Source: an uncultured Mycoplasmatota bacterium
GTDB lineage: Bacteria > Bacillota_I > Bacilli_A > RF39 > UBA660
Reading direction: 5' to 3'
DNA: 64,000 nucleotides
Assembly: GCA_945919295.1 (NCBI GenBank)
Contig: CAMEJC010000001.1
Span: forward strand, 16,973-80,972
Numbering within the stretch: the stretch's first letter is position 1; each line of letters begins with the position of its first letter. Below are positions 1,057 through 64,000 of the stretch, piece after piece. The notes beneath the pieces are model-generated. The model saw nothing but the letters and a program-made list of their open reading frames with translations. It was not told the DNA's origin and did not search any database. A program made the position numbers and the translations under genes.

Positions 1057-1878
1057 ATGCAAGAAAAATGTGAATTATATTTAGGTAATTGTGTTGATGT
1101 ATTATCAAAATTAATAAATGATGGAATACAAGTTGATTTAACTATAACATCACCGCCGTATGATAATATATTAACATATCAAGGTACTTGTACTTGGAAT
1201 TTTGACATATTTAAAGAAATTGCTAATAAATTATACCAAATAACAAAAGATGGTTGTGTTGTCGTGTGGGTTGTTGGTGATCAAATAATAAACGGTTCAA
1301 AATCACTTACATCTTTTAAGCAAGCATTATATTTTCAAGAAATAGGTTTCAAGTTTCATGATGATATTATATTTGAAAAAAATTCACCATCTTTTCCACC
1401 AAAAAGAACATCTAAACGTTATGGTAATATATATGAACATATGTTCGTTTTAGTAAAAGGTAGAAACATACGTAATGATATTACATTGATTGCTGATAAA
1501 CCAAATAAATATGCTGGCTTATCTTCTTGGGGCAATTGTAATCATTATGATAAAAATGGTAACATTATAAATGGTAAAAAAATTGAAAATATACCAGATT
1601 TTAGTTTAAGAAATAATATATGGAAATATACAGTTGGTTGTAATAAAGATAAAAAATTCGGAAAACACCCTGCTGTATTTCCTGAACAACTTGTTCTTGA
1701 CCATTTGTTATCTTGGTCTGTTGAAAATGATTTAGTTCTTGACCCTTTCATGGGAAGTGGAACGACTGGAAAAGTATCATTATTGAATAACAGAAAATTT
1801 ATAGGTATTGAATTATGTGATACTTATTTTAATCAAGCCAAAGAACGAATTAATTTTTATAAAAACACTTTTTTATAA
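1057..1878 (+). CDS. DNA methyltransferase (SPPY motif; N4-cytosine or N6-adenine, beta-class)
   Basis: TSPPYDN motif IV near N-term; C-terminal FPEQL and LDPFMGSGTTGK plus NRKFIGIEL motif I. Confidence 0.75.
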   Translation: MQEKCELYLGNCVDVLSKLINDGIQVDLTITSPPYDNILTYQGTCTWNFDIFKEIANKLYQITKDGCVVVWVVGDQIINGSKSLTSFKQALYFQEIGFKFHDDIIFEKNSPSFPPKRTSKRYGNIYEHMFVLVKGRNIRNDITLIADKPNKYAGLSSWGNCNHYDKNGNIINGKKIENIPDFSLRNNIWKYTVGCNKDKKFGKHPAVFPEQLVLDHLLSWSVENDLVLDPFMGSGTTGKVSLLNNRKFIGIELCDTYFNQAKERINFYKNTFL

Positions 1879-1925
1879 ACAAAATTAAGCCATATATTAA
1901 AAATTTGTTGTATCTTTGCAGTATG
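1871..1925 (+). promoter_or_regulatory. class-A conserved promoter/leader element
   Basis: TTTTATAAACAAAATTAAGCCATATATTAAAAATTTGTTGTATCTTTGCAGTATG; contains TATCTTTG (TAnnTTTG) and a TATATT -10-like box; more than 28 copies in the window. Confidence 0.6.
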
Positions 1926-1974
1926 AAATAAAAAAAATAGGAAAATTATATAATAACTAAAAAAAATAGAAATT

Positions 1975-3351
1975 ATGAAAACTTTATCTCAATCAAAACA
2001 CATGTCTCATGAGTACTGTTGTACTATTGTTAAAATTGGCGAGGTTAAACCTATTGACGGTTCTGACTTTTTAGGTCAAGTTCTTGTGGAAGGTAGAACT
2101 ATTGTTGTTAGAAAAGATGAAATTCACGAGGGTGATATTTTGTTTTATGTTCAAAATGAATCTCAAATTAATAGAGATTTTACTTTTGTTAATAATTTAT
2201 TTGATGATAAAACATTAAATTATGATACATCACAAAAAGGATATATCAATAAGAATTGCCGTATAAGAATGGTTAAATTAAGAGGTGTTTTATCTATGGG
2301 ATTCTTATTTAGCGTTTCTTGTATGAAAAAATGGTATCCTAATTTCGATGTCGATATCAGCCAACATATTGGTGAGGATTTTGATACTGTAAATGGTGAG
2401 TTATTTGTTAAAGCTTATGTCCCACCTGTTAAAGAGTCTAATGTTAATCGAAATAAAAGTAAAAACAATAACTTAAATAAAATAGATTGTCTTATTCCTG
2501 GTAAATTTCAATTACATTATGATACACAACAACTGAATCGTAATATGGATAAAATTCAACCTAATGATGTAGTTTCTATTTCAGTTAAAATGCACGGAAC
2601 TTCTATTGTTATTGGTAATGTTTTGACTAAATATCCTAAATTTAATGGCCTATATTTTAAATTATTCCCATATTTACCTAAATTTCTAAAGTTTTATAAA
2701 GAAAAATATACTGTTATTTATTCTTCTCGAACTGTCATAAAAAATAGAAATATTAACCCTAAAGTAAAAGATGGTTATTATAGTAAAGATGTTTGGGGTG
2801 AATATTATGAACTACTTAAAAATTATATACCTGAAAATATGACAATTTATGGTGAAATTGTTGGATATGTCGGTGGTACTAACACTATGATACAAAAAGG
2901 TTATGATTATGGATGCAAACCAGGTGAAAATAAATTAATGATATATCGTATATCCACTGAAGATGAAACAGGTAAAAAATATGAGTGGAATGTGTCTGAT
3001 GTTTATGATTTCACTTTATTATTGAAAGATAAAGTTGAACTAAAAGATAAAATACACCCTATTGATATATTATATCACGGTACATTAAAAAACCTATATG
3101 AAGACGTTTCTATTACTACACATTGGAGCGAAAATGTTTTAGAAAAATTGAAAAATGATATAACATTCGGAATGGAACAAGACGAACCTATGTGTAGAAA
3201 TAAAGTACCAAGAGAAGGATTTTGTCTTAGAATCGATAATGATATTATTGATGAATGTTTTAAATTAAAATGTTTAAAATTCTTAAATAGAGAAAGTAAA
3301 CTCATTGATGATGGTGTTATTGATGATTTTGAAATGCAAGAACGTTATTAA
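1975..3351 (+). CDS. RNA ligase, Rnl2/Rnl5-like (N-terminal extra domain plus nucleotidyltransferase)
   Basis: KMHGTS matches ligase motif I KxHGT of Rnl2-type enzymes; REGFCLRID (motif IV-like) and KLKCLK (motif V-like) follow; about 190-aa N-terminal extension. Confidence 0.55.
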   Translation: MKTLSQSKHMSHEYCCTIVKIGEVKPIDGSDFLGQVLVEGRTIVVRKDEIHEGDILFYVQNESQINRDFTFVNNLFDDKTLNYDTSQKGYINKNCRIRMVKLRGVLSMGFLFSVSCMKKWYPNFDVDISQHIGEDFDTVNGELFVKAYVPPVKESNVNRNKSKNNNLNKIDCLIPGKFQLHYDTQQLNRNMDKIQPNDVVSISVKMHGTSIVIGNVLTKYPKFNGLYFKLFPYLPKFLKFYKEKYTVIYSSRTVIKNRNINPKVKDGYYSKDVWGEYYELLKNYIPENMTIYGEIVGYVGGTNTMIQKGYDYGCKPGENKLMIYRISTEDETGKKYEWNVSDVYDFTLLLKDKVELKDKIHPIDILYHGTLKNLYEDVSITTHWSENVLEKLKNDITFGMEQDEPMCRNKVPREGFCLRIDNDIIDECFKLKCLKFLNRESKLIDDGVIDDFEMQERY

Positions 3352-3353
3352 TT

Positions 3354-3941
3354 ATGATGATTAGTAAAAGATTAAATGTTGATGATATGTGCAAAAATAA
3401 GAGATGGTATAAAAAAGTAAAAGACTTTTTTGTATACAGCATTGGTTTGAATGTAAGAGATTGGTGGAATAGTATAAAATGGTATTTTAGTAATTTGAAG
3501 CGTTTTCAACCAGTGATTAAATCGTGGCGTTACTGGGATTATCAATATCAAGTTGATTTGTTTGTTTTCGGACTCAAGCAATTGGCGGATGCAATCGATA
3601 GATATGGACATGAAGAAGATGTATCACGCAAAAAAAAGGTTGCTGCAATTAAATCACTTATTGCCGAAATTGAACGTGATTATCAAGATGATGTGGATAG
3701 CCGTAATGAAGATTCTTATGCAAAATATTATGAGAGATACTATGCCGCACTGAAGAGAACGCGTAAAGCACATTATGACAAGATATTCAAACTGATTATC
3801 GGTCAGGACGAATACAAACTACATCAGATGGTCAAAGCCAAGTACGAAGCGTTATCTGAAGAAGAAAAAGAAAAATTCGATTATTTTTCCTCGTATGTAG
3901 AATTGTTCGACGGTTCTGGAATAGAAGGATGGTGGGATTAA
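3354..3941 (+). CDS. hypothetical protein
   Basis: 195-aa ORF; no class-A promoter, so probably co-transcribed with the ligase; visibly higher G+C than its flanks. Confidence 0.45.
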   Translation: MMISKRLNVDDMCKNKRWYKKVKDFFVYSIGLNVRDWWNSIKWYFSNLKRFQPVIKSWRYWDYQYQVDLFVFGLKQLADAIDRYGHEEDVSRKKKVAAIKSLIAEIERDYQDDVDSRNEDSYAKYYERYYAALKRTRKAHYDKIFKLIIGQDEYKLHQMVKAKYEALSEEEKEKFDYFSSYVELFDGSGIEGWWD

Positions 3942-12260: not shown

Positions 12261-12318
12261 TTTTATTTTTTTTTATAAACAAATTTAACTCATATATTAA
12301 AAATTTGTTGTACTTTTG
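12261..12318 (+). promoter_or_regulatory. class-A promoter
   Basis: TTTTATAAACAAATTTAACTCATATATTAAAAATTTGTTGTACTTTTGTTGTATC. Confidence 0.55.
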
Positions 12319-12354
12319 TTGTATCAAAGTAAAACAATTAAAATTAAGTTCATT

Positions 12355-13563
12355 ATGCGTAGATATATTAAAAATTTTTTAAGATCAAGAGGTGTTGTTG
12401 AATATAGTGAACAAATGATATATATGGGTTCATTAAAACGTGATGTGCCTAATTTACGTCTAAACAATGACAGATTTATGGTTGCTGCTTTGAGAATGTT
12501 ATTTGATGGTGAACTATCTAATGATGAAGATAAACGCTCATTAAATGTAATTCTTAAACATATTAATAATTGTGGTCAGGTATATAATTATAACTATAAC
12601 CTTAATGGGTTAAAATTAAGTGAGTTGTCTAATAAATATATTGATGAAATAAAATTAAATTCAGAAAACGATAAGGAACGTAGTGCAAAAACAAAACGTT
12701 GTAATGGTAATGGTTATAAGATTATTCCAATTTACTCTTTTGAAGAAGCAAAACAATATAGTAAATATACTGAATGGTGTGTAACTAAAGAATTAGATGA
12801 TTTTAAAGATTACACTAAATGTGGTAATAAGCTTTATTTTTGTTTGAAAGATGGTTTTGAACAAGTTCAACGTAATGACGATGGAGCACCATTGAATGAA
12901 TATGGCTTATCGATGCTTGCTGTTTTAGTCGTTTATAATGGAGATTTGTCTATTATATCAACTAGATATAATCATGAACATAACGGTGAGAATAATGACA
13001 ACTTAATAACTGTTGAACAATTGGAAAATGTTCTTGATGTTAATTTTTATGATATATTTAAACCATATACTACTGAAGAAATGGATGAACTTGGCATTAT
13101 CTTAATTAACCAAGCTCAATCTCTACTTGATAGTGGTAAAGAACCAAGTGAGGTTTTTGAAACTTGTTATGAGTTTTCTGAAGGGTTTGCTGTTGTGTTC
13201 TTAAATAATAAAACTAATTATATTGATACGAATCATAAGTTATTATTACCTAATCAATGGCTTGATTTTTGCTGTAATTTTAAAGAAGGATTTGGACAAG
13301 TTGAAATTGATCATAAATGGAATTTTATTAATGCTAATGGAGAATTATTATCCCAAAATCAATGGTTTGATACTTGTTTTAGTTTTTCTGAAGGGTTTGC
13401 TGTTGTTAGGCTAAATAATAAATATAATTTCCTAAAAACTAATGGAGAATTATTATCACCGAATCAATGGTTTGATAAAATTCGTGATTTTGAAGAAGGT
13501 TTTGCTGAAGTTGAATTAAACAATAAAAGATATAAAATTAATACTAAAGGTGAATTGTTGTAA
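12355..13563 (+). CDS. WG-like beta-repeat protein (paralog A)
   Basis: Start at MRRYIKNF by paralogy with 13651; C-terminal 4 repeats of roughly EGFAxVxLNNKYNFIxxNGELLSPNQWFD (WG-repeat-like); class-A promoter 12261-12318. Confidence 0.55.
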   Translation: MRRYIKNFLRSRGVVEYSEQMIYMGSLKRDVPNLRLNNDRFMVAALRMLFDGELSNDEDKRSLNVILKHINNCGQVYNYNYNLNGLKLSELSNKYIDEIKLNSENDKERSAKTKRCNGNGYKIIPIYSFEEAKQYSKYTEWCVTKELDDFKDYTKCGNKLYFCLKDGFEQVQRNDDGAPLNEYGLSMLAVLVVYNGDLSIISTRYNHEHNGENNDNLITVEQLENVLDVNFYDIFKPYTTEEMDELGIILINQAQSLLDSGKEPSEVFETCYEFSEGFAVVFLNNKTNYIDTNHKLLLPNQWLDFCCNFKEGFGQVEIDHKWNFINANGELLSQNQWFDTCFSFSEGFAVVRLNNKYNFLKTNGELLSPNQWFDKIRDFEEGFAEVELNNKRYKINTKGELL

Positions 13564-13577
13564 TTTGAAAAAAATCA

Positions 13578-13626
13578 TTAACATAGAAATCGTTCATTTA
13601 GAAATTTTATTGTATCTTTGCAGAGT
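13578..13626 (+). promoter_or_regulatory. class-A promoter (variant)
   Basis: ATTTTATTGTATCTTTGCAGAGT. Confidence 0.5.
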
Positions 13627-13650
13627 AAAATTTAAACAATAGTTATCTAT

Positions 13651-15513
13651 ATGAGAAGATATGTAAAAAGATACTTAATGTCAAAAGGGATTTCTGATTA
13701 TAATGAACAAATGAAATACACTGGTTCATTACAACATGATATTCCTAATCTACACCTTGATAAATCAAAATTCCTACTTGCTGCCTTGAGATTGTATTTT
13801 GGGGGTGAGTTGAATAGTGAAGAAAATGTACGTTCATTAGATACGGTACTTAAGTACATCAATAAAGGTAATCATACAAATGAGTATGATTATAACCTTA
13901 ATGGGTTATCATTAATAGAACTATCTAATAAGTATAAGAACGATATACGTCAAGACTCTGAAAACGACAGAAAACGCAGTGAATTAGTTAAACGTAGCAA
14001 TAATGGTGGTTACAACATTATTCCTATTAATTCCTTTGAAGAAGCAAGTAAATATTCTAAATACACATCTTGGTGTGTGACACAGGATAAAAATGCGTTT
14101 GATAGTTATACAAGAGGTGGTAGTAGATTTTATTTTTGTTTAAAACAAGGTTTTGAAAGTGTTGAGCAAGATAATAACGGTGCTCCATTAAATGCTTATG
14201 GCTTATCAATGATAGCAGTGAATGTTGATATGAATGGTGATTTGACAAGAATTACTACAAGATACAATCATGAGTTTAATGGTGAGAATAATAATGGTTT
14301 ATGTACTGTTGAGCAATTGGAAGATGCACTTGATGTTAATTTTTATCAGGTATTTAAACCATATACGAGAGAGGTGTTACATTCTATGGGAATAGTGTTG
14401 TTTGATGAGGTTCAAGATTTGCTTGATAGTGGTAAAGACCCAAAAAAGTTATTTGATAGTGTCGATAAATTTTATGAGGGTTTTGCAATAGTTAAATTAA
14501 ATGATAAATATAATGATAAATATAATTTTATAGATACAAAAAGTAATTTATTATTACCAAATCAATGGTTTGACTGGTGTAGTGATTTTAAAGAAGGTTT
14601 TGCTATTGTTGAATTAAATGGTAAGTATAATTTTATAGATATAAATTGTGAAATATTATCATCAAATCAATGGTATGATTATTGTTTCAATTTCAGAGAA
14701 GGTTTTGCAATAGTTAAATTAAATGATAAATATAATTTTATAGATATAAATTGTGAAATATTATCATCAAATCAATGGTTTGACTCTGCTTGTGGTTTTA
14801 AAGATGGATTTGCACGAGTTAATTTAAAAGGTAAATTTAATTTTATAGATAGAAATGGTGAAATATTATCACCAAATCAGTGGTTTGATGATTGTGGAAA
14901 TTTTCATGAAGGTTTTGTAAGAGTTGGATTAAATGGTAAGTTTAATTTTATTGACACTAATGGTAAGTTATTATTACCAAATCAGTGGTTTACGAACGTA
15001 TATGATTTTCATGAAGGATTTGCACGAGTTAATTTAAAAGCTAAATTGAATTTTATAAATAAAAAAGGTGAGTTATTGTCCAAAAATCAGTGGTTTGATT
15101 ATTGTAGAAAATTTAATGATGGTTTTTCTGGCGTTTTTTTAAATGATAAATGGAATTTTATAGACACTAATGGTAAGTTATTATCACCTAATCAATGGTT
15201 TGATGAGGTTTATGATTTTGAAGATGATTATGCGAGAGTTAAATTAAATGATAAGTATAATTTTATTGACACAAAAGGTAAGATATTGTCACCTAATAAA
15301 TGGTTTGATTATGTTTTTAGTTTTGATGGTGGTTTTGCTGTTGTTAGGCTAAATAATAAATATAATTTCCTAAAAACTAATGGTGAATTATTATCACCAA
15401 ATCAATGGTTTGATAAGTGTAGTTCGTTTCGTAACGGATTTTCTGATATTAAAATAGACGATAAATTGTTTAAAATTAATAAAGATGGAGAAATATTATC
15501 TAATGAAAAATAA
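13651..15513 (+). CDS. WG-like beta-repeat protein (paralog B, about 12 repeats)
   Basis: N-terminal 270 aa homologous to 12355-13563; about 12 tandem roughly 30-aa repeats; class-A promoter 13578-13626. Confidence 0.6.
   Translation: MRRYVKRYLMSKGISDYNEQMKYTGSLQHDIPNLHLDKSKFLLAALRLYFGGELNSEENVRSLDTVLKYINKGNHTNEYDYNLNGLSLIELSNKYKNDIRQDSENDRKRSELVKRSNNGGYNIIPINSFEEASKYSKYTSWCVTQDKNAFDSYTRGGSRFYFCLKQGFESVEQDNNGAPLNAYGLSMIAVNVDMNGDLTRITTRYNHEFNGENNNGLCTVEQLEDALDVNFYQVFKPYTREVLHSMGIVLFDEVQDLLDSGKDPKKLFDSVDKFYEGFAIVKLNDKYNDKYNFIDTKSNLLLPNQWFDWCSDFKEGFAIVELNGKYNFIDINCEILSSNQWYDYCFNFREGFAIVKLNDKYNFIDINCEILSSNQWFDSACGFKDGFARVNLKGKFNFIDRNGEILSPNQWFDDCGNFHEGFVRVGLNGKFNFIDTNGKLLLPNQWFTNVYDFHEGFARVNLKAKLNFINKKGELLSKNQWFDYCRKFNDGFSGVFLNDKWNFIDTNGKLLSPNQWFDEVYDFEDDYARVKLNDKYNFIDTKGKILSPNKWFDYVFSFDGGFAVVRLNNKYNFLKTNGELLSPNQWFDKCSSFRNGFSDIKIDDKLFKINKDGEILSNEK
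14478..14779. repeat. exact internal DNA repeats inside the WG-repeat gene (about 39 bp and 49 bp exact copies)
   Basis: GAGGGTTTTGCAATAGTTAAATTAAATGATAAATATAAT at 14478 and 14700; TATAATTTTATAGATATAAATTGTGAAATATTATCATCAAATCAATGGT at 14626 and 14731. Confidence 0.75.
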
Positions 15514-21850: not shown

Positions 21851-24325
21851 ATGGAAAATTATATATATAAGAAAAAACGTAATAGTATCGATAAAATTTA
21901 TTCGAAAAGTGATGCTCAGACCTATAATATAGGTTTGTCATTAGAAGAAAAAATAAAAATGGGTGTAGTATTACCTGATTTTGAATTTAATCAAAAAAAG
22001 AAAATGCGATTTGGTAATATAGTATTAAAATATACCCCAACAACACCAATAAGAGTAGTTAAAAATGATGGTGTTTATTATGATGGTGCCTATTATGGAC
22101 ATAATACAGTTGAAAGATTATTTGAATGTACACATAATATAATTAGAGATATATATGGTTTTACTGATACAGGTGAGTTTGATGTTAATGTTGCTTCAGA
22201 AACAAGTGGTGAAAGTATTAGTGTAGAACCAAGAGTAGGACTTGTTGGTTATGCTTTTGACTTTTCAATAAACTATCAACAAATGGGTAATTATGGATTA
22301 GGTAATTTAGTAATAAAACCCTATAAATATTTTGTTATGTTAAAAAACCCACAAGATTTTCAATATGATTCACTATTTCTTCAATATTATGATGAAACAA
22401 CTAATACTTGGAATGATATTGAAAAGGAAGCACAAAGTTATTATATAAATAGTAGTAATGAAATATGTTTTTATATACCATTAAAAGCAAAGCGTAAATT
22501 ACGAATTGGTATTAGTGGATATTCAACTTATGATGCTGATTTTTTAGCATATATACGAAATGTGCGTAATAAATTAAAAGTATTTCAAAAATTTGAAATT
22601 GTTGGTATACTTAATCCTGATAGTTTTAATAAATATGCAGATAAATTCATTAATGGTAGAGGAGTATTTTTTAGCGAGAATAAAAATTGGTATTATATAA
22701 ATATAGACGATTTAGATAATATTAGAGTTAAAAAAGATAAATGGGTATATGATAATAATACAAGATACCATTATGGGTTAACAACAAAAAGCGGTATTAA
22801 AAATGGAGCTATATATTATAGAACTTGTAATCAAAATAATAATGAAATGCAGAATAGTACAGTATTTCCATTTTTAAATGATGGTAGTTATTATACATAT
22901 TGTAAAAGAAAGAATAATTTTAATTGGAAAAAGTTAAAATTTGATAAAGATTGTTTGATTGAACAATGTTTAACATTAACTTATAATTCTAATAAATATA
23001 CGTTTAACCATTCTTTAACAAAGAAAGCAAAAAATAAAAAAGTTGCATATATTTCATTTATTGGTACAGATATAATAGATGTTTTATATATAGATTTATT
23101 ACCAGATAGCATAGATGATGGTTTTACACCAACAGTTTATGATATGAATAATAATATTGTTACAGGTGTTATTCATATAACTTTTGATATTAAAAAATTA
23201 TTAAATTATTCAAGAGATATTTCTTCTTCAAGCAATAAAGTTAATTACATAGATGTTATTAAACCATATAATGGTAAATATGCTTATTTTAAGTATAATA
23301 TCATTTCAAGTAATACATATGGTTTGTATAATATTACTAAAAATTTTCAAAGATATTTAGATTATAAAGAAGTTCCTGAAAATTTAAATCATTTGAAAGG
23401 TTATAAGCCTCTTCCTGGTTTTAGAAAATTATTACCCCCCCCCCAAAGTAATGTGGTGGCTATCAGGCGTTTACTATTTAGGCAGGATGCGACAGTCAAT
23501 GGAATCAGTTATTCAAGTTTAAGCAGTAGTAAGTTATTACAATTAGATAAATTTGAATGTTTAAAAAACATTAATTCTGAATCTATTGTTTATAATGGTC
23601 AAAAATGTTATGTGTGGAGGAAAATAGAGGATTATGATAGAACTGAAACATATAACAATTATGAAAACGATAATGATGATAGAGAACATATATATACTCC
23701 TAATGGTGATGATAGTATTATTTTAACAAACACATTAGATATTACATTACCTTTTAATATAAATAGTGAAGAATTTGTTACATCTTTAGTTATTACAAAT
23801 TCAAATATTATTGGTGAATCATATGTTAGTGAAACATTAGTAAAACCTTGTATTGCTAAAATAGATGAGTATGCTGATGGTCATGAGATATTATATATGT
23901 TGAATTGCTATTGTCAAATTTTTAATAGACAACATACTGAAAGTTTAATTACAGAATTAGGCGAAGATAATAGAACACCTGTAGATTTTATTAATTATAC
24001 AGGAAATATTGTTGAATATAATGGACAAAAGTGTTTTGCTTGGAATAGATATGACCCAGGTGATTTTTTCTATAATGAAAAAATATTAACAAATACATTG
24101 TTTATAAATATGCCAATTGATGACTCGTCACCTGAACTTGTTGCACAAGTTATCATTGATGATATGTCAGAATCATGGCCAAGAACTTATTTTATTGATG
24201 GAGCTTTCAGACATATATTTGATTATGGCAATCCTGATAGTATTCAATATGATGAAACACAGTTATATAGTGATAAATTATTGAAATTTGTTAAAAATGA
24301 TGTTGGAGTATGGGTATTAGCGTAA
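21851..24325 (+). CDS. large hypothetical protein (candidate virion/host-interaction protein) with internal C10 tract
   Basis: 824-aa ORF with no class-A promoter; contains the C10 homopolymer 23435-23444 (encodes PPPQ). Confidence 0.5.
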   Translation: MENYIYKKKRNSIDKIYSKSDAQTYNIGLSLEEKIKMGVVLPDFEFNQKKKMRFGNIVLKYTPTTPIRVVKNDGVYYDGAYYGHNTVERLFECTHNIIRDIYGFTDTGEFDVNVASETSGESISVEPRVGLVGYAFDFSINYQQMGNYGLGNLVIKPYKYFVMLKNPQDFQYDSLFLQYYDETTNTWNDIEKEAQSYYINSSNEICFYIPLKAKRKLRIGISGYSTYDADFLAYIRNVRNKLKVFQKFEIVGILNPDSFNKYADKFINGRGVFFSENKNWYYINIDDLDNIRVKKDKWVYDNNTRYHYGLTTKSGIKNGAIYYRTCNQNNNEMQNSTVFPFLNDGSYYTYCKRKNNFNWKKLKFDKDCLIEQCLTLTYNSNKYTFNHSLTKKAKNKKVAYISFIGTDIIDVLYIDLLPDSIDDGFTPTVYDMNNNIVTGVIHITFDIKKLLNYSRDISSSSNKVNYIDVIKPYNGKYAYFKYNIISSNTYGLYNITKNFQRYLDYKEVPENLNHLKGYKPLPGFRKLLPPPQSNVVAIRRLLFRQDATVNGISYSSLSSSKLLQLDKFECLKNINSESIVYNGQKCYVWRKIEDYDRTETYNNYENDNDDREHIYTPNGDDSIILTNTLDITLPFNINSEEFVTSLVITNSNIIGESYVSETLVKPCIAKIDEYADGHEILYMLNCYCQIFNRQHTESLITELGEDNRTPVDFINYTGNIVEYNGQKCFAWNRYDPGDFFYNEKILTNTLFINMPIDDSSPELVAQVIIDDMSESWPRTYFIDGAFRHIFDYGNPDSIQYDETQLYSDKLLKFVKNDVGVWVLA
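23435..23444. repeat. C10 homopolymer inside CDS 21851-24325
   Basis: ATTACCCCCCCCCCAAAG. Confidence 0.9.
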
Positions 24326-39132: not shown

Positions 39133-39157
39133 AATATTAATTTTTTAAGTTAATTAG

Positions 39158-39244
39158 TACCACCAGTGGGATTCGAACCCACACGGACATTACTGCCCAA
39201 CGGATTTTAAGTCCGTCTTGTCTGCCTAGTTCCAACATGGTGGC
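39158..39244 (-). tRNA. tRNA-Leu(TAA)
   Basis: 87 nt; acceptor GCCACCA/TGGTGGT; anticodon arm ACGGA-CTTAAAA-TCCGT (anticodon TAA); long variable arm; T-arm GTGGGTTCGAATCCCAC. Confidence 0.85.
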
Positions 39245-39257
39245 TTATTCATTTTAT

Positions 39258-39533
39258 TTATTTTCTATCACCTATATATTCAACCAATGACTTCATATCA
39301 CGAACTAATTCATCTTTTACCCATGCCTTATCAGCATCGCCACTTAAAGCCATTACTACATCCCGATAACTCAAAATACGACGTTCAGGGTCAGGATGAA
39401 TAGACATTAAAAATGGGTCATCTAATTTATGGCTCAATAGGTCTTTAAAAACTAATTCCATTATCGAAAGTAATACTGAATCATATTCACTACTATTCTC
39501 TTTTTTCCAAATAATAAAATCTTCGTTACTCAT
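39258..39533 (-). CDS. hypothetical protein
   Basis: 91-aa ORF. Confidence 0.4.
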   Translation of the reverse strand: MSNEDFIIWKKENSSEYDSVLLSIMELVFKDLLSHKLDDPFLMSIHPDPERRILSYRDVVMALSGDADKAWVKDELVRDMKSLVEYIGDRK

Positions 39534-39565
39534 ATTATAACTTTTTTTCTATTTCAACAAAATAA

Positions 39566-40174
39566 TTATAAAATTCGTTTACCAATTTTTATTTTCTTTG
39601 CTACAACTTTAGAATCAAATTCATGCCTTTCATCAGAAACTCCTTCAAGCTCAACCTCATGAACAACTATTTCTTTTCCTAAATCTCCATAATAGTAGCT
39701 AAATACATCAGTTAGACTTAAACAAGCGTGAAAACCTTGTTTACATAATAGAGGTTTACCTTTAATTTTATAAGTCTTACCTTCTTCATATTGAAAACCA
39801 CGACAAGTCATATTTGAATTAAATACTTTATATGCTTTGCATTTACCTTCAACTACTTCTTGTGTTTCATAGGTTGTATTACCAATAATTACACTTTTTA
39901 AATTGTTACAAATATCGAAAGCAAATCCTTCAATACTCGTTACTGAATTTGGAATTGTAATAGAAGTAAGATTTAAACAGTCTTTAAACGCACAACGTCC
40001 AATTTCCGTTATTGAGTTAGGTAGAGTAATAGAAGTAAGTAAGGTGCAACCACAGAATGCATAATATCCGATGCTTGTATATCCATCAATCATATCAGAA
40101 GTAATAACTTCTAATTTATCTAATCCAAGTTTTTCTATAAGTACTCTTGTTAATACTTTTTCTTCATTTTCCAT
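39566..40174 (-). CDS. BspA-type leucine-rich repeat protein
   Basis: YAFCGCTLLTSITLPNSITEIGRCAF... matches LRR_5/BspA repeats; C-terminal domain shared with 44270-45016. Confidence 0.55.
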   Translation of the reverse strand: MENEEKVLTRVLIEKLGLDKLEVITSDMIDGYTSIGYYAFCGCTLLTSITLPNSITEIGRCAFKDCLNLTSITIPNSVTSIEGFAFDICNNLKSVIIGNTTYETQEVVEGKCKAYKVFNSNMTCRGFQYEEGKTYKIKGKPLLCKQGFHACLSLTDVFSYYYGDLGKEIVVHEVELEGVSDERHEFDSKVVAKKIKIGKRIL

Positions 40175-40245
40175 AATAACTAAATTTATTCTAAAAGTTT
40201 TTTACATGATAAATTAATGGAGTTCCGTCATCATATTTATAGTTG

Positions 40246-40330
40246 CGGAGGCTGTAGGATTCGAACCTACGGTACCTATTGGTACGGCGATTTTCAAGAC
40301 CGCTGGATTAAACCACTCTCCCAAACCTCC
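40246..40330 (-). tRNA. tRNA-Ser(TGA)
   Basis: 85 nt; anticodon arm GCGGT-CTTGAAA-ATCGC (anticodon TGA); long variable arm; T-arm GTAGGTTCGAATCCTAC. Confidence 0.85.
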
Positions 40331-44269: not shown

Positions 44270-45016
44270 TTATAAAATTCGTTTACCAATAGTTATTTTC
44301 TTTGCTACAACTTTAGAATTATCTTCATCCCTTTCATCAGAAACTCCTTCAAGTTCTACCTCGTGAATAACAATATCTTTTCCAATTTCACCATAATAAT
44401 AGTCAAACACATCCAAAAGGTTCAAACAAGCGTGAAAACCTCTATTACACAATTTAGGTTCACAGTCAATCTCATAAGTCTTACCTTCTTCATATTGAAA
44501 ATCACAACAAGTTAAATCAGCCTTAAATGCTTTATATGCTTTACATTTACCATTTGTTACTTTTTGTATTTCATAGGTTTTATCTCCAATAACTATACTT
44601 TTTAATTTATAGCATCTGTAAAAAACACACTCTCCAATGCTTGTTACGGAGTTGCCGATGGTTACCGAAGTCAGGCCGAAGCAACCAGAGAACGCACCAT
44701 CTCCGATGCTCGTTACGCTGTTAGGAATCGTTACCGAAGTCAGGCCGCTACAACGGGAGAACGCACCATATCCGATGCTCGTTACGCTGTTCGGTATCGT
44801 TACTGATGTCAGACCGCTGCAATCATTGAACGCAGAACCTCCGATGCTCGTTACGCTGTTCGGTATCGTTATCGAAGTCAGGCCGCTGCAACCAGAGAAC
44901 GCATAAATTCCGATGCTTGTATATCTATCAAGCATATCAGAAGTAATAACTTCTAATTTATTTAAACCAAGTTTCTCTACAAGTTCAAATGTTAGTATTT
45001 TTTCCTCATTTTCCAT
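44270..45016 (-). CDS. BspA-type LRR protein with recently expanded 23-aa repeats
   Basis: Start MENEEKILT by paralogy with 39566; four near-identical 69-bp units at 44634-44909 encode SGLTSVTIPNSVTSIGxGAFSxC repeats; C-terminal domain shared with 39566. Confidence 0.55.
   Translation of the reverse strand: MENEEKILTFELVEKLGLNKLEVITSDMLDRYTSIGIYAFSGCSGLTSITIPNSVTSIGGSAFNDCSGLTSVTIPNSVTSIGYGAFSRCSGLTSVTIPNSVTSIGDGAFSGCFGLTSVTIGNSVTSIGECVFYRCYKLKSIVIGDKTYEIQKVTNGKCKAYKAFKADLTCCDFQYEEGKTYEIDCEPKLCNRGFHACLNLLDVFDYYYGEIGKDIVIHEVELEGVSDERDEDNSKVVAKKITIGKRIL
44634..44909. repeat. four tandem 69-bp near-identical repeats (LRR-coding), G+C-rich relative to the genome
   Basis: Anchors CCGATG/CCAATG at 44634, 44703, 44772, 44841 and 44910; period exactly 69. 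Confidence 0.8.
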
Positions 45017-45656
45017 TGTAACTAAATTTAATTTTTTTATTATTAAAATATTCAATAATTTCTTCAAGAGACCATAATTGTTTTTGTCCATCCCAACCAA
45101 CATCTAATCGTAAGTCATGACAATTTTCATTTATTTCATCAATCCTACCATGACAATGACCATGTAGCATTATAGAACCATGTTCCATTGACCACCAATC
45201 CAACATTGGAAAATGACAAAGGAATAGACGTTGTGTTTCATTAAGAAATTCAAATCTACTTTTTTTGCAATCTAAAAGATACATTTGTTTACAAGTAACC
45301 CAACCATGAATAGATTCTCCTGAACTATCGTGATTACCTTTAATTAAATGTTTCTTTCCATGCAGCTTATGGAAAATCTTTTGCGTCTCCTCTACGCCAT
45401 AAAAAGAGAAATCACCTAAGATATATACTTCATCTTTCTTATCAATTATACTATTCCATTTGTTAATAATAAAGCAATCCATTCGTTTAATTGCCTCATC
45501 CTCGCTAATTTCAGTATTAGTTGATAAGTCAGTATAAACCCATTTATCTTCTACCTTATCACATTTAACACCTATATCTGCACAACGCTTTGGTGTATAA
45601 TGTAATATATTTTTATGGCCAAAGTGGGTATCACTTGTAAAATATAATTTATTCAT
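45006..45656 (-). CDS. metallophosphoesterase (PP-lambda/calcineurin-like)
   Basis: SDTHFGH, YILGDFSFYG, KGNHD and HGHCHG motifs. Confidence 0.6.
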   Translation of the reverse strand: MNKLYFTSDTHFGHKNILHYTPKRCADIGVKCDKVEDKWVYTDLSTNTEISEDEAIKRMDCFIINKWNSIIDKKDEVYILGDFSFYGVEETQKIFHKLHGKKHLIKGNHDSSGESIHGWVTCKQMYLLDCKKSRFEFLNETQRLFLCHFPMLDWWSMEHGSIMLHGHCHGRIDEINENCHDLRLDVGWDGQKQLWSLEEIIEYFNNKKIKFSYNGK

Positions 45657-54239: not shown

Positions 54240-54271
54240 AGTTCAATTATTAATTTTAGTTTAATAAATTG

Positions 54272-54358
54272 TACCACCAGTGGGATTTGAACCCACACGG
54301 ACATTACTGCCCAACGGATTTTAAGTCCGTCTTGTCTACCTAGTTCCAACATGGTGGC
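54272..54358 (-). tRNA. tRNA-Leu(TAA), second copy
   Basis: Near-identical to 39158-39244 with a few substitutions. Confidence 0.85.
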
Positions 54359-54464
54359 ATATTTCAAAGATTAGATACTCATTTGAGTACTTTTATTTTC
54401 ACACTGCAAAGATAATATTTTCTTTTGAGATATATAACAATTTTGTTTATAAAATTTATAGTTG

Positions 54465-54549
54465 CGGAGGCTGTAGGATTCGAACCTACGGTACCTATTG
54501 GTACGGCGATTTTCAAGACCGCTGGATTAAACCACTCTCCCAAACCTCC
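54465..54549 (-). tRNA. tRNA-Ser(TGA), second copy
   Basis: Identical or near-identical to 40246-40330. Confidence 0.85.
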
Positions 54550-57284: not shown

Positions 57285-57376
57285 AAGCCCTCCTTTTTTA
57301 AGTTGTTAATAAAATTGTTTGTTTATTTTGATACTGCAAAGGTACAATAAAATTCTAATATACTACATAATTTTGT

Positions 57377-57797: not shown

Positions 57798-58406
57798 TCA
57801 TTCATCTTCTTCAAATTCATCTTCATCCCATTCAATGTCTTCATCAATTTCATAAATTACTTCTCCGTTTTCGCAAGAAATACCTTGATGAAAACCACAC
57901 CCATACTCATACCCATCCAATTCAAAAGACAATTTTGGATTTTCTTTGGCAATAGTAGTTACCCACATAAGTGGTGCGCACCACGCAGTGTCAAACACAC
58001 CTTTAACACAAAGAACACCATCGTCCTCATCCATGGATACACAATAATCAAACACTTTTGCGTCCCATTTGACACCTAATGTTTTTAAGTTGTAGGCATA
58101 CCAACCTACTGCACCATAAGTTTCTTTTTGGTGTTCAACAGCGGTATCATACCCCTTTGAGTATTTTTCATACTCATCATCGGTGTTGAAATAGTTTCTG
58201 TTCAATTTTCTATTTGTTGTATCATAATCAACAAACGTTTGTGGCATTGGCAACCAAGAACGCATTGTGATTTTGTCTTTATTGTTTTCAATGAACTCTA
58301 AAAGGCTTTCTTGGGTTTCTCCTTTGAAACCAACTTTTTTGAAGAAATCAAATATATCTTCCTTTTTCCCTTTAATTTGGATTGTGTCTTCACAATAATT
58401 CGGCAT
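57798..58406 (-). CDS. acidic hypothetical protein
   Basis: 202 aa; leader AAAAAAGGAGGGCTTATG. Confidence 0.45.
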   Translation of the reverse strand: MPNYCEDTIQIKGKKEDIFDFFKKVGFKGETQESLLEFIENNKDKITMRSWLPMPQTFVDYDTTNRKLNRNYFNTDDEYEKYSKGYDTAVEHQKETYGAVGWYAYNLKTLGVKWDAKVFDYCVSMDEDDGVLCVKGVFDTAWCAPLMWVTTIAKENPKLSFELDGYEYGCGFHQGISCENGEVIYEIDEDIEWDEDEFEEDE

Positions 58407-58884: not shown

Positions 58885-59059
58885 ATTGCCTCCTTTTTTA
58901 ATAGTTAATACTTGTTTTTGTTTTGGTATTGCAAAGGTACAACAAGTTTATAATATACTACATAATTTTGTTTATAAAAATTTTTCACCTAAAATTGCCA
59001 ACAATACCTATATCTTCAAATAAAACAAAAAAATTGACATATAACTGAATTATGTTTAT

Positions 59060-59129: not shown

Positions 59130-59987
59130 TTAATTCGCTTTTAAATATTCATTACATTTCAATGTATCAAATATCTGTGTAATTGTTTTACCATTATTTA
59201 ATTCATTGATGATATATGTCATATCTATTTTTATTTCATTTTTACCATCTCTACTATAATCTTGTACATATTTCATAAAGGTATTAAAGCCTTTTTTGAT
59301 TATTGTACTATCTTTATAGATAATAGTATTACTATCAAGTGTACAATCTTTTAATGATATTTTTTTACGACCCTTTTCTTTTGCTTTTTCAAGAAGTTTA
59401 GTAACCTCTTTATATGCTCTATTTTGGTCGCCCTCTGCTCCATACATTATTCGGTCTAAATTTGAGCCACTAATTACATCATCTTTTAATAAAGACGATA
59501 GTTTAGGGTCTAATTCCAAATATCCCAAATATCGAGATATTACACTTTGATTTTTACCCAATTTCTTGGCAACTTCACTTTGGGTTAAACCACATCTATC
59601 CATCAGTTTTTTTGCCAATACGCCCCATTCATAAGCATTAAACGGTTTGCCCTCATTTCTTAACGCTTGTTGAAGTAACAACTCCTCTTCGCTTGTACTT
59701 TTAGACAATAGTAAACTTGGAATACGTGCTATCTCAACACCTTCGTTTATGAGTTTCATTACCGCTCTATATCGACGTTCTCCATCGACTAATTTATATT
59801 TCTCAAACCCATCTTCATCAACGAAAGGTATTGTTGAGATTGGATTTAAAACTCCCTGCTCTTTAATTTGAGCCGCAAGTTCATCTATATCACCAAAGTT
59901 AGTTCGACTATTAAAGTCTTTAACTACCACGATGTTACGTGGGTCTATTTTAAATATTTCTCCTTTGATTGTCTTATTGTTTTCCAT
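59130..59987 (-). CDS. ParB-like nuclease/partition-family protein
   Basis: KLVDGERRYRAV ParB box plus HTH-like LTQSEVAKKLGKNQSVISRYL. Confidence 0.6.
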   Translation of the reverse strand: MENNKTIKGEIFKIDPRNIVVVKDFNSRTNFGDIDELAAQIKEQGVLNPISTIPFVDEDGFEKYKLVDGERRYRAVMKLINEGVEIARIPSLLLSKSTSEEELLLQQALRNEGKPFNAYEWGVLAKKLMDRCGLTQSEVAKKLGKNQSVISRYLGYLELDPKLSSLLKDDVISGSNLDRIMYGAEGDQNRAYKEVTKLLEKAKEKGRKKISLKDCTLDSNTIIYKDSTIIKKGFNTFMKYVQDYSRDGKNEIKIDMTYIINELNNGKTITQIFDTLKCNEYLKAN

Positions 59988-60063: not shown

Positions 60064-61005
60064 TTATATAACATCTTTTTGCTTAAAATATTGTTGCAAT
60101 TTTTGTATAGCAGTAAGTTTTATTCTATATATCATCTGTGTTGAACAATTAAATATTGTTGCAAGTTCCTCTGCACTTAATATCTTATTACCATTTAAAC
60201 CATAAAGATGTTCTATTATATACTTTTCCTTATAGCAAGTCGGTATAACACCATTTTTTAATCCTGATTTTTTTCCCTTAAAACGATTAATCTCTTGCTC
60301 ATAGTATTGATTTATCTCTTCAAGATAAACATTTTTATCCATTGAATAATCAATACATTCATCAATCATATCCTCATTCTCGTTTATTTGATACTCTATC
60401 TTGTCCCTCATACAAACTGAATCATCAACTTCATTAAAGCCATCTAATGACACAAAGGTGCTATTACTATGTTCTATACGTTGAATTTCATAACGTTTAA
60501 CATCAGGAAACTCATCTTCTATCATTTGCTCACTCGGATAATAACCATTTTCAACGTAAAATTTGTCTATAAACCTTTTAATTTGATAATTCAACGGCTT
60601 ACCATTCAATGATATTACACTACCATCAGAATTTCTCATCGTATAAGTCAAGATACATTTTATTGCATAAGAGAGAAAATTTATCGTTTGATTTTCAGTG
60701 TCATAAGTCTCTATCGCTTTAATTAAACCAAAATTTGCTTCTGACATAAAGTCAAAAAAATAATAATTATTGCAATACTTCTTGGCTAACATAAAGCATA
60801 ATGATTGAAATGATATTATCAATTTCTCTAACGATTTGTCTGATTTATCATTCTTCTCTTGAACATCCTTAATTAAAGGAATACATTCTGTTTGAGACAA
60901 TCTGTATTTCTTATTAAGGATTTTATTCAAGTATCTACCAAAATTTTCATTGCAAGATAAATTTAAATATTTACCTTGTACCTCATTAAAGTCTAAAAAT
61001 TTCAT
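60064..61005 (-). CDS. RNA polymerase sigma factor (sigma-70 family, phage-encoded)
   Basis: Region-2-like FMSEANFGLIKAIETYD; region-4 HTH LSAEELATIFNCSTQMIYRIKLTAIQKLQ. Confidence 0.55.
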   Translation of the reverse strand: MKFLDFNEVQGKYLNLSCNENFGRYLNKILNKKYRLSQTECIPLIKDVQEKNDKSDKSLEKLIISFQSLCFMLAKKYCNNYYFFDFMSEANFGLIKAIETYDTENQTINFLSYAIKCILTYTMRNSDGSVISLNGKPLNYQIKRFIDKFYVENGYYPSEQMIEDEFPDVKRYEIQRIEHSNSTFVSLDGFNEVDDSVCMRDKIEYQINENEDMIDECIDYSMDKNVYLEEINQYYEQEINRFKGKKSGLKNGVIPTCYKEKYIIEHLYGLNGNKILSAEELATIFNCSTQMIYRIKLTAIQKLQQYFKQKDVI

Positions 61006-61849: not shown

Positions 61850-62245
61850 AATTGCCTCCTTTTTTAGTGTTAATAAATTTGTTTTGTTTTGATGCTGCAA
61901 AGGTACAATAACATTTTTATATACAGCATTATTTTGTTTATAAAAACATAAAACACAAAATAAGGCACTTTTAATGCGTTTTAAGGCACTTTGTTTTTTT
62001 ATGTATGTTTTATTGATTACATAAAAACAATGCAATACAAGTGAAATATGATAGTAATTTTAACGATATTAAAAAACAACATAATAAACATGGGTTTGTT
62101 TAAGTAAAAAATATCCACACAATTTTTTAGTGTTAAATACCTATATCTCCAAATAAAACAAAAAAATCAATATACAACTGATTTATGTTTATAAAAAAAA
62201 AGGCACACAAATTGTGTACCTTTTAATTTTAGATTAACGATTTGA

Positions 62246-62581
62246 TTAAAAATCGGATTTTTTTCTTTCAATCAAGATTTCAATGAATTTTACCAACATT
62301 TGTTGGTCATTTACTATCTTATCGGCCACTTTGTCAGTTTTAAGCGACCACACGTCGCGACCATAATCAATGAATTGAGACATTTCGTCCCAATAGTCCG
62401 CCATGAGGTCTTTTACCTCGTCTGGCGTCCACTCTGCCAATTCTTCTTTTATCATCGGTTTTACAACCGATTTCACAACATTAATGAGTTTGTTGCTGCC
62501 GAACATTTCAGCAATCATTTTCTCAATCTCTTTTTCGCTTTGAGCGAACATTGCAGCCATTACAAAATTTTTCATTTCCAT
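62246..62581 (-). CDS. hypothetical protein, family E
   Basis: Start set at MEMKNFVMAAMF by paralogy; the upstream MQYQNKKQMFNLLKKGVL is derived from promoter and leader. Confidence 0.45.
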   Translation of the reverse strand: MEMKNFVMAAMFAQSEKEIEKMIAEMFGSNKLINVVKSVVKPMIKEELAEWTPDEVKDLMADYWDEMSQFIDYGRDVWSLKTDKVADKIVNDQQMLVKFIEILIERKKSDF

Positions 62582-62624
62582 AAGTACTCCTTTTTTTAAT
62601 AGGTTAAACATTTGTTTTTTGTTT

Positions 62625-62680
62625 TGGTACTGCAAAGGTACAACAAGTTTTTCATATATATGGAAACTTTGTTTATAAAA
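62625..62680 (-). promoter_or_regulatory. class-A promoter
   Basis: Same consensus. Confidence 0.55.
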
Positions 62681-62711
62681 AAATCAACACACTATATAAT
62701 ATACCCCATCA

Positions 62712-62830
62712 AGTACCCCATCAAGTACCCCATCAAGACCCTCCCTATGTATCACCTCCCAATACCCTCCCTATGTATCCCCTACATATACCCTCCCCAT
62801 GTAACCCCCCCTATGTTTACCCTCCCACTT
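62712..62830. repeat. C-rich tandem/degenerate repeats (TACCCCATCAAG x3, then CCCTCCCTATGTATC-like units)
   Basis: Direct reading of the sequence; the complementary strand carries many GGGG/GGG tracts. Confidence 0.8.
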
Positions 62831-62983
62831 AGCCTGTTGTATATATGGGGGGCTACTCTTTCCATTAATTTTTTCAGAAAAAATCAGATGAATAAATAAG
62901 GGGGTACCCCCTAAAATCAAAAATAGGAAAGTTAAAAAAATTTTCCCAGAAAATTTTTGTGAAAAATCAAAAATGATATTAAG

Positions 62984-63016
62984 AAAAAAAAATAAGGTAG
63001 ATATAAATATCTACCA
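62984..63016 (-). terminator. rho-independent terminator downstream of thyX
   Basis: GGTAGATATAAATATCTACC hairpin plus T9 on the minus strand. Confidence 0.55.
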
Positions 63017-63228
63017 AATAATAAGATTATAATTTTAATGTTGTTATATATTTTTTTAGTGAAATAATTTTAATATAGATCCACCTATTAAATATTAAAA
63101 ATTTGTGATTAAAATATAGTTTATTAACAAAAAAATAAATAACGTTATAAAAACTAAAAATTATGAAAAATAAAGTGACGATAAAATAGTGCAATATTTT
63201 TTTGATTATTATCATAATAAATAGAATT

Positions 63229-64000
63229 TCAAATAAGTCCTCTATTCTGAAATTCATTCATTAGAGGCATAGCGAGTTCTTTAGCTTGCGGATGTGGAGC
63301 GCCAGTAGTGCCAATAGCTCTAAGGTTAAAGAAGTGTATCCAGTCTTTAACGAACATAGTTACGATAAGAGGCGAGTTAATAGCGCACGGCAAAATAGTT
63401 CTTGCTTGTTGTGGTTTCCAGTTAAAATTAGAAATTAGTTTATTATAAGCCCATTCACAAGTTTTAAGTGTAAAAAGCCATACATCGATTTCGTTCCAAT
63501 TATCGTTTATATTAAATTGTAGTTGATTACAAAGTTTAAGATAATAATCATCATTAAAGTTATCAATAACATTTTGTTGAATATTAAGCCAAGGTGGTAA
63601 AATAAATTTAATAGAGCCATTACCATTTTTTTCTTTAGTATAATTAATATACCTAGTAGATTCTCTATTAAAAGATCCTTTACGATGTCTTAAAAATTCT
63701 TCGCCAGTAAATCTATCAATAGTAAATTTTACGGTTATTCTTTTTTCGTGTTGAGATTTAGGTTCTGAAAGGAATCTAATATCTTCCATCCAATTATTTT
63801 CGAATAATACTCTAAAATTAGTAGTTATAAACACTTCATGAATTGAATTATTATTATCATTTCTATAAATACTATTTACGTGAGAATATTCATTATTTCT
63901 ATATTTAGAAGCGATAAAAGATACAACATCACCCCAATTATAATAGTCTGTAAAATCTTCAATAATATAATCAGAATGTTTACTAGAATTAAAATTATCT
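63229..64000 (-). CDS. thyX: flavin-dependent thymidylate synthase ThyX (5' end runs off the window)
   Basis: ThyX signature EEFLRHRKGSFNRESTRY (RHRxxxxxxxS); the frame stays open to the window edge; terminator hairpin 62984-63016 downstream. Confidence 0.6.
   Translation of the reverse strand, partial: DNFNSSKHSDYIIEDFTDYYNWGDVVSFIASKYRNNEYSHVNSIYRNDNNNSIHEVFITTNFRVLFENNWMEDIRFLSEPKSQHEKRITVKFTIDRFTGEEFLRHRKGSFNRESTRYINYTKEKNGNGSIKFILPPWLNIQQNVIDNFNDDYYLKLCNQLQFNINDNWNEIDVWLFTLKTCEWAYNKLISNFNWKPQQARTILPCAINSPLIVTMFVKDWIHFFNLRAIGTTGAPHPQAKELAMPLMNEFQNRGLI

Follow-up and report, generated by a model that had tools for sequence, protein, structure and literature searches.

A strain-variable minisatellite of G-tracts between thyX and a recurring promoter cassette in a gut phage lineage

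Promoter-upstream G-quadruplexes, such as that of the human c-MYC nuclease hypersensitive element III1 (NHE III1), and the barrier at mitochondrial conserved sequence block II (CSBII) are built from G-tracts clustered on one strand, upstream of a start or just beyond a transcription unit, and are expected to fold under negative supercoiling or in the nascent RNA. Here we describe an array of G-tracts at positions 62702–62826 of a 64,000-nucleotide (nt) stretch of contig CAMEJC010000001.1 (assembly GCA_945919295.1, contig positions 16,973–80,972; hereafter the window). The phage that carries it is uncultured, comes from the gut and probably infects a member of the Bacteroidota. The array lies between thyX, encoding a flavin-dependent thymidylate synthase, and the promoter of the next gene cluster. 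We conclude with high confidence that the array is a non-coding, strain-variable minisatellite of sense-strand G-tracts between two transcription units. Its location, 60–200 base pairs (bp) upstream of that promoter and just beyond a transcription unit, resembles that of NHE III1 and CSBII, and folding would be expected under the same circumstances. However, the array belongs to a phage of an AT-rich lineage, has 14–19 tracts arranged as a variable minisatellite, is only predicted to fold, and has no sequence homology to either system.

The array (~125 nt) contains 14 runs of three or more C on the plus strand, i.e., 14 G3+ tracts on the complement, within 140 nt, compared with a maximum of 4 such runs elsewhere in the window and 6 in 200 first-order Markov simulations. 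An initial reading of the sequence by a model (the sequence-only reading) had counted six or more tracts and called the island striking for a genome of about 28% G+C; both statements held, the count being an underestimate and the G+C content of the window being 28.6%. Since all genes from ~29.9 kb to the end of the window are encoded on the minus strand, the G-rich strand of the array is the sense strand. The strand asymmetry is pronounced: C accounts for 43% and G for 6% of its plus strand, and the most extreme C-over-G stretch of 78 nt in the window (38 C, 3 G) falls within it. Two parts can be distinguished on the basis of their repeat units. The first (62702–62737) comprises three exact copies of a 12-bp unit, TACCCCATCAAG on the plus strand and CTTGATGGGGTA on the minus strand. 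The second (62738–62817, fading out at ~62826) comprises four ACCCTCCCTATGTA-like units with a 13/26-bp period, including CCCCCCCTATG at 62805–62815; on the minus strand these units carry GGGAGGG and GGGG, and their sequence and copy number vary among haplotypes. This organization, three exact copies followed by several related units, is as first described. The three unit types (the 12-mer, the GGGAGGG units and a G7 unit) have nothing but G-tracts in common, and the array motifs are restricted to this single locus within the 64 kb. In ViennaRNA folds, the C7 run of the array (62805–62811) and a run of six G on the plus strand (62847–62852) are able to base-pair, which would give an alternative long hairpin on either strand.

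The array is the sole long stretch of the window with an absolute G4Hunter score of at least 1.2 (25-nt window; a score above 1.2–1.5 is the criterion for a G-quadruplex-forming sequence). The score peaks at 2.08 and remains at or above 0.88 over 62695–62833, giving a high-scoring region of ~135 nt. Under the sequence definition, which asks for four or more G3+ runs on the same strand with loops of 1–7 nt (up to 12 nt in the extended form), the minus strand qualifies with 14 runs, or 14–19 across haplotypes, and loops of 1–9 nt. When G-quadruplexes were enabled in RNAfold, the predicted energy of the array changed from −19.6 to −39.8 kcal/mol and two G-quadruplexes were placed. These predictions agree with the initial characterization of the complement as G-quadruplex-prone, for which a G4Hunter analysis had been proposed, and indicate a strong G-quadruplex propensity on the sense strand. 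Putative G-quadruplex sites are rare in Bacteroidetes phages (mean of 0.41 per kb at the 1.2 threshold) and enriched in viral repeat regions (PMC8036883). Like the surveyed sites (PMC8036883), the array combines a high G4Hunter score with a repeat region of a double-stranded DNA virus; for a phage of the Bacteroidetes type, however, both its score of more than 2.0 and its length of ~135 nt are exceptional. Non-coding tandem repeats prone to G-quadruplex formation are a known kind of element in the intergenic regions of viruses; the array is a variant that is new in size, in position and in being carried by a Bacteroidota phage.

We compared the locus across contigs of related phages drawn from gut metagenomes in ENA, Logan and NCBI (designated here by L numbers). 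Phages with 95–97% nucleotide identity yielded six versions of the array, five of them complete: that of the window, shared by L007 and L120, and those of L001, L110–L114, L119, L167, and L168 together with L169 (partial). The array, a run of six C just before it on the minus strand and a nearby palindrome were kept in all six. Complete haplotypes carry 14–19 G3+ tracts, and the array with short flanks measures 143–180 nt; the versions of L001, L110 and L119 have the same G4Hunter score as that of the window. One additional 26-bp unit is present in L119, an 11-nt deletion removes one 12-bp unit in L167, and L001 has a 1-nt insertion. About 12 substitutions resemble unit-to-unit conversion (e.g., TATATGTAGGGG vs. 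TATTGGGAGGGG), and variable sites are more frequent in the array than in its flanks. Such gain and loss of units, single-nucleotide indels and conversions among close relatives identify the array as a non-coding minisatellite. Its non-coding status also follows from the two small open reading frames (ORFs) that overlap it, at 62612–62899 on the plus strand and 62771–62920 on the minus strand: both are broken by the 1-nt insertion in L001, the 26-nt insertion in L119 and the 11-nt deletion in L167, which rules out their coding potential. The 150 bp preceding the array are nearly invariant, yet indistinguishable from the background of ~2 variable sites per 50 bp, and we do not regard them as specially conserved.

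Outside this group of phages the array was not found. Homologues of thyX in a large protein collection have 98, 80, 73, 70, 68 and 57% identity, the 98% being to full-length homologues of 326 amino acids (aa). The test of conservation in related genomes suggested by the sequence-only reading therefore had a divided outcome: the block is present in all relatives with 95–97% nucleotide identity and missing from every relative at or below 80% thyX identity (57–80%), in which the region downstream of thyX is not syntenic. Analogous arrays were not found in MT835477, Bacteroides phage Versailles, L003–L006 or L102–L106. Searches of the region against 50,697 GenBank phages (megablast and blastn) yielded no homologue, four scans of IMG/VR with exact array, palindrome or neighbouring-protein patterns returned nothing close, and the only Rfam match was at chance level and on a terminator. 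A generic scan of IMG/VR for three copies of GGGAGGGT retrieved 93 arrays from giant viruses and various phages that are unrelated to it and that we did not take as homologues, and a 17-mer scan of GTDB gave 43 single matches in GC-rich bacteria, approximately the number expected by chance. In metagenomes of the Joint Genome Institute, a 24-mer scan detected only tandem copies of the 12-mer, (CTTGATGGGGTA)n, in L107 (207–290), L108 (1500–1570) and L109 (165–235). These contigs have higher G+C, are possibly from Bacteroidales and have flanks unrelated to the phage locus; on the opposite strand, the repeat encodes a Pro/Ser/Thr linker of a putative Fic-like gene according to our own translation. 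This match is probably a coincidence of the 12-nt unit. No collection searched contained a homologue of the array, which is restricted to a single phage lineage of species level. In a separate observation, the 80% thyX relative L003 has ~2 kb without a called gene after thyX (1750–3840), in which several tRNA-like sequences were seen by eye and the motif ATAGTTGAAGGAAAACAAC recurs; this region might represent a set of small RNAs.

Such a restricted distribution could be explained if the array were functionless, i.e., if a G-rich seed had grown by slippage and unequal exchange in a tolerant spacer and persisted merely owing to the youth of the lineage. Its absence at or below 80% thyX identity, its excess of variable sites over the flanks, the indels of 26, 11 and 1 nt, the unit-to-unit conversions and the frequency of long non-coding spacers between the promoter cassettes of this genome are all consistent with this scenario. 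However, a strand-asymmetric composition as extreme as 43% C and 6% G is found here in a genome whose 28.6% G+C implies mutation pressure towards A/T; there are several different unit types, all with G-tracts; and the array was kept in six out of six haplotypes, linked to the promoter through a replacement of the upstream DNA. We consider a functionless origin doubtful, although plausible.

On the downstream side, the minus strand leads from the array into a promoter-leader cassette (62587–62681) that precedes a gene of 111 aa. The cassette consists of a T-run and TTTATAAACAAA (62668–62679), ~27 nt, TTGTACCTTTGCA (62631–62643), a conserved leader and the Shine-Dalgarno sequence AAAGGAG, whose GGAG core at 62587–62590 is followed by an ATG at 62581. 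TTGTACCTTTGCA includes a Bacteroidota-type −7 box, TAnnTTTG. Against an expectation of 2.1, the window has 25 copies of the core motif, nearly all oriented with the genes, and the cassettes share the same layout: T-run, TTTATAAACAAA, ~27 nt, TTGTACCTTTGCA, GTACCAAAACAAA, then AAAAAGGAGG and ATG. Examples on the minus strand are located at 62631–62643, 61896–61908, 58930–58942 and 57335–57347, and on the plus strand at 1908–1920 and 13610–13622. In the other cassettes a GC-stem terminator with its T-run usually adjoins TTTATAAACAAA directly; a G-tract array is present before only this one of the ~25 copies. A GGAGG or AGGAG Shine-Dalgarno motif precedes 5 out of 55 ORFs of at least 120 aa, and three of these, together with several smaller genes, lie directly behind a cassette (ORF starts at, e.g., 62581, 58406, 57284, 49473 and 42167). 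For a phage whose host group makes little use of such motifs, a gene subset with strong Shine-Dalgarno sequences is unusual.

The 111-aa gene itself (62246–62581, minus strand; 42% G+C) has no family match. It is absent from haplotype L001, in which a 30-aa gene follows the promoter instead, and is thus a cassette gene. In general, small genes are gained and lost between strains at cassette boundaries (window 62246–62581; L001 2400–2520; L167 4332–4799). A G-quadruplex motif beside cassette-type variation, in this case neighbouring genes that are present or absent between strains, is reminiscent of Neisseria pilE, where a G-quadruplex initiates recombination. However, the cassette indels are here bounded by the ~100-bp promoter-leader repeats and can therefore be explained without any G-quadruplex, and no small-RNA promoter was identified. 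A role as recombination hotspot or as regulatory G-quadruplex, both proposed in the sequence-only reading, is conceivable. The terminator of the 111-aa gene is followed by a spacer in which a single copy of ATATCCACA (62111–62119) matches eight of nine DnaA box positions, which could be due to chance.

The minus-strand order of the complete junction is thyX, a spacer of ~15% G+C, a first terminator (T1), an A/T block, a palindrome (T2), the C6 run, the array and the promoter-leader cassette. The gap from the thyX stop (63229) to the next start codon (62581) spans 647 bp; it had been correctly described as non-coding, but its size had been underestimated at roughly 550 bp. The window contains the 3′ part of thyX (63229–64000, minus strand, stop codon at 63229–63231; Pfam Thy1, 8.5e-18). 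The adjoining AT-rich spacer (63016–63228, 213 bp, minus strand) has a 110-bp indel in some haplotypes. Both a terminator scan and folding identify T1 (62984–63015, minus strand), GGTAGATAT-TT-ATATCTACC followed by TTATTTTTTTTT, as a strong intrinsic terminator of thyX, with a hairpin at 63015–62996 and a U-run. Between T1 and T2 lie ~85 nt of A/T-rich palindromes and repeats; the conserved A/T block there (62913–62974) contains the A/T palindrome AAAATTTTCTGGGAAAATTTT at ~62937–62957 and the two copies of AAAATCAAAAAT, a repeat already recognized in the sequence-only reading, at 62913–62924 and 62963–62974. The placement of the array between the thyX terminator and the downstream promoter was confirmed; both are on the minus strand.

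The perfect 12-bp palindrome noticed initially, GGGGGTACCCCC, is present, but at 62900–62911, 9 nt away from the position given (62909–62920), and extends to a perfect 14-mer, AGGGGGTACCCCCT (T2, 62899–62912), which continues on the minus strand with TTATTTATT. A minus-strand terminator scan matches 62913–62897 with the tail TTTATTCATC, the U-tract being weaker than that of T1. The palindrome is unchanged in all haplotypes, other terminators of this genome have similar stems of G and C runs, and in L167 it is the sole GC hairpin downstream of an extra gene of 155 aa. AGGGGGTACCCCCT is most simply read as a second intrinsic terminator. The extra gene of L167 replaces T1 and the AT-rich spacer, and homology to the window returns at TTTTCTGGGAAAA (~62957), indicating that palindrome and array travel with the downstream promoter. 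The window has two perfect GC-rich 14-bp palindromes, at 62899–62912 and 57971–57984, which are unlike each other. The second, GTGGTGCGCACCAC, lies within the ORF at 57798–58406, 1.15 kb downstream of a ParB-like gene, is kept in L119 (16408–16421) and might be a site for ParB or a regulator. Further variation was observed a few genes upstream of thyX, where some relatives carry a TnpB/Cas12f-like gene (Pfam Cas12f1-like_TNB and OrfB_IS605; L005 1339–2433, L006 895–1989, L167 1–910) that is absent at the same flank in L119 and L120, the relatives most similar to the window; this suggests an IS605-type element that is mobile within this phage group.

For the role of the array we favour, at a probability of only about 0.3, a structure-based boundary or promoter-modulating element that acts through a G-quadruplex and/or an R-loop. 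Such an element would work through nucleic-acid structure and not through a specific sequence: the 14–19 tracts of G3–7, with loops of 1–9 nt, could form several G-quadruplexes in tandem along the G-rich DNA strand, which is the non-template strand of the flanking genes, and the same folds in read-through RNA would stabilize an R-loop. The duplex could be opened by negative supercoiling behind RNA polymerases firing from the promoter 60–200 bp downstream or, alternatively, by polymerases that escape T1 and T2. In this way the array would shield the thyX unit and the gene cluster of the cassette promoter from each other, as a barrier or insulator, and/or tune the first promoter of that cluster. 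We favour a structure-based role because the unit types share only G-tracts, because many tracts are retained even as loops and copy number change, because the strand asymmetry is complete, and because the array, located where a terminator meets a promoter, stays with that promoter. The anatomy of the locus, its strand asymmetry, its G-quadruplex propensity, its non-coding status and the persistence of the array through changes in copy number are established, whereas actual folding and any effect on transcription are inferred with low confidence.

Several points weigh against a structure-based role. With two terminators upstream, little RNA should enter the array, and as it accompanies only one of ~25 promoter copies it is not a general part of the promoter. 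Single G-tracts are polymorphic (GGG/AGG, GGGG/GGTG). The haplotypes differ by only 3–5%, so that retention of the array does not demonstrate selection, and relatives at or below 80% thyX identity do not have it. Modified guanines, if present in the phage DNA, could preclude G-quadruplexes. More specific versions appear improbable, namely that the array is a dedicated structure device of a Bacteroidota phage, either a multi-G-quadruplex/R-loop that insulates thyX or primes replication from read-through transcripts, or a plus-strand CCUCC anti-Shine-Dalgarno RNA that shuts off neighbouring genes.

Tandem direct repeats in a non-coding gap with adjacent AT-rich DNA are also characteristic of iteron origins and operator arrays (lambda ori, P1 oriR, and ori and 'per' of lactococcal phages), and the array could accordingly be a set of protein-binding sites. 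A phage DNA-binding protein would recognize the three 12-bp units, the two to four 26-bp units and possibly also the 14-bp palindrome, candidates being a ParB/KorB-like helix-turn-helix protein (59130–59987), a sigma-like protein (60064–61005) or another regulator or initiator; the array would then serve as operator or activator site of the adjacent promoter, as ParB loading site or as iteron-type origin. The location of exactly repeated 12-mers and nearly exact 26-mers shortly before a promoter, the confinement of the motifs to this locus in 64 kb, the adjacent stretch of 15% G+C and the perfect GC-rich palindrome 75 bp away, one of two in the window, are in line with this explanation. In addition, ParB_N, HTH_ParB and KorB domains are encoded by the gene at 59130–59987, 2.7 kb downstream of the array and in the same orientation as its flanking genes; a perfect palindrome with a ParB-family gene downstream recalls ParB/KorB palindromic sites. 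An iteron-type origin should have at least three near-identical direct repeats, which are found here, although two unrelated unit types are atypical.

However, the units are alike only in their G-tracts, their sequence and number drift between strains, and periods of 12 and 13 bp do not fit the helical repeat. ParB/KorB sites are palindromes of 13–16 bp that match a family consensus and are usually present in several copies or beside parB; compared by eye, the palindrome does not resemble the parS/KorB operator consensus but looks like the terminators of this genome, and it occurs once, 2.9 kb from the ParB-like gene. The specific suggestion of a replication origin, made in the sequence-only reading, found no backing: the ORFs scanned, the neighbours of the array among them, yielded no recognizable replication, initiator, helicase or primase gene; GC skew shows no shift, having the same sign and size on both sides of the array in L119, a weak test because skew follows transcription; and the AT-rich spacer is unlinked to the array, which L167 keeps although a gene has taken the place of the spacer. 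Heterogeneous units, the lack of an adjacent initiator gene among the scanned ORFs and an unlinked AT-rich flank also set the array apart from known iteron origins. Protein-binding sites are a possible, if uncertain, alternative to the structure-based role.

Read on the opposite strand, the array would give rise to a C-rich RNA, acting either as a Rho-loading (rut) site that halts antisense transcription from the cassette genes towards thyX or as a CCUCC small RNA that pairs with GGAGG leaders. Its plus strand has the sequence features by which rut sites are predicted in the manner of RhoTermPredict, i.e., a C-rich, G-poor and unstructured stretch of ~80 nt with C-runs or YC dinucleotides spaced by ~11–13 nt, followed by a pause site: the strongest C-over-G bubble of the window (38 C and 3 G in 78 nt) is located here, C-runs are ~11–13 nt apart over much of the array (spacings 12, 12, 11 and so on), the array is predicted to be largely unstructured, and hairpins follow within 150 nt downstream on the plus strand. 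The array further contains 5 to 8 CCTCC motifs, and GGAGG Shine-Dalgarno sequences (before the 5 of 55 ORFs described above) are found almost exclusively behind cassette promoters. However, the nearest plus-strand match to the phage promoter motif is ~21 kb away, a sigma-70-like TTTATA-17-TATAAT at 62672–62700 is no better than chance in AT-rich DNA, and Rfam has no match to the array. Natural rut sites, moreover, are not usually exact tandem repeats, and plus-strand transcription is putative here. Either function of such an RNA is unlikely. We also discarded a type III toxin-antitoxin RNA or a phage mimic of one (pseudo-ToxI), as its units should measure ~34–40 nt, not 12 and 26 nt, and as the array is followed by a promoter and a 111-aa gene without family match (in L001, a 30-aa gene), not by a terminator and a ToxN-like gene.

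The remaining function proposed at first, a pac or cos packaging site, is very unlikely, as is a physical end of the genome such as the edge of a terminal repeat. Short tandem repeats and G/C palindromes are located beside the terminal repeat of T7 and in the injection-stop region of T5, and two short contigs of the present phage group stop just before the palindrome (L002) and just before the C6 run (L115). However, the array is internal in an 87.2-kb contig, more than 30 kb from either end, as well as in contigs of 14.4, 13.8 and 11.9 kb. Ends of contigs near the array are scattered or fall in repeats, either in the repeated promoter (L112–L114) or inside the array of the Logan contigs L168 and L169, the latter being taken as repeat-induced assembly breaks, and no terminase gene was recognized among the ORFs of the window that were scanned.

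Assignment of the phage to a Bacteroidota host is based on the promoter type of the recurring cassette, the rarity of Shine-Dalgarno motifs in the ORFs of the window, the best GenBank match of the ParB-like protein, which is to Bacteroides phage Versailles (45%), and the similarity of thyX to that of Bacteroides crAss-like phages (43%). A crAss-like identity was considered on the basis of the latter match but rejected, as the thyX relatives at 57% adjoin sheath and tube genes and no crAss hallmark gene was found. Most proteins of the window are without family assignment. Other repeats and genes were observed at a distance from the array. The longest G/C run in the window is a C10 homopolymer at 23435–23444 inside an 824-aa ORF (21851–24325, plus strand), which could be a site of slippage or phase variation or a weak point of sequencing. 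The window has seven tRNA genes in total, among which tRNA-Leu(UAA) and tRNA-Ser(UGA) are each present twice, as two Leu-Ser pairs ~15 kb apart (39157–40330 and 54271–54549); this arrangement suggests a segmental duplication. A GC-rich 69-bp repeat is present in 4.2 copies at 44626–44917 inside the ORF at 44270–45103 (minus strand), and 105-bp repeats matching the WG_beta_rep family (span 13240–15414) occur in the plus-strand ORFs at 12316–13563 and 13651–15513.

At present the array is best seen as a well-defined curiosity open to testing, not as a new mechanism that has been demonstrated. Even if it does nothing, it remains useful for telling strains of this phage lineage apart and is known to break its assemblies. 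If it folds and acts, its ~135 nt would offer a compact and easily mutated test system and a natural case of a phage that tunes or insulates transcription by a G-quadruplex minisatellite with strain-variable copy number. Phage gene regulation in the Bacteroidota, which is almost unexplored, would then gain an example.

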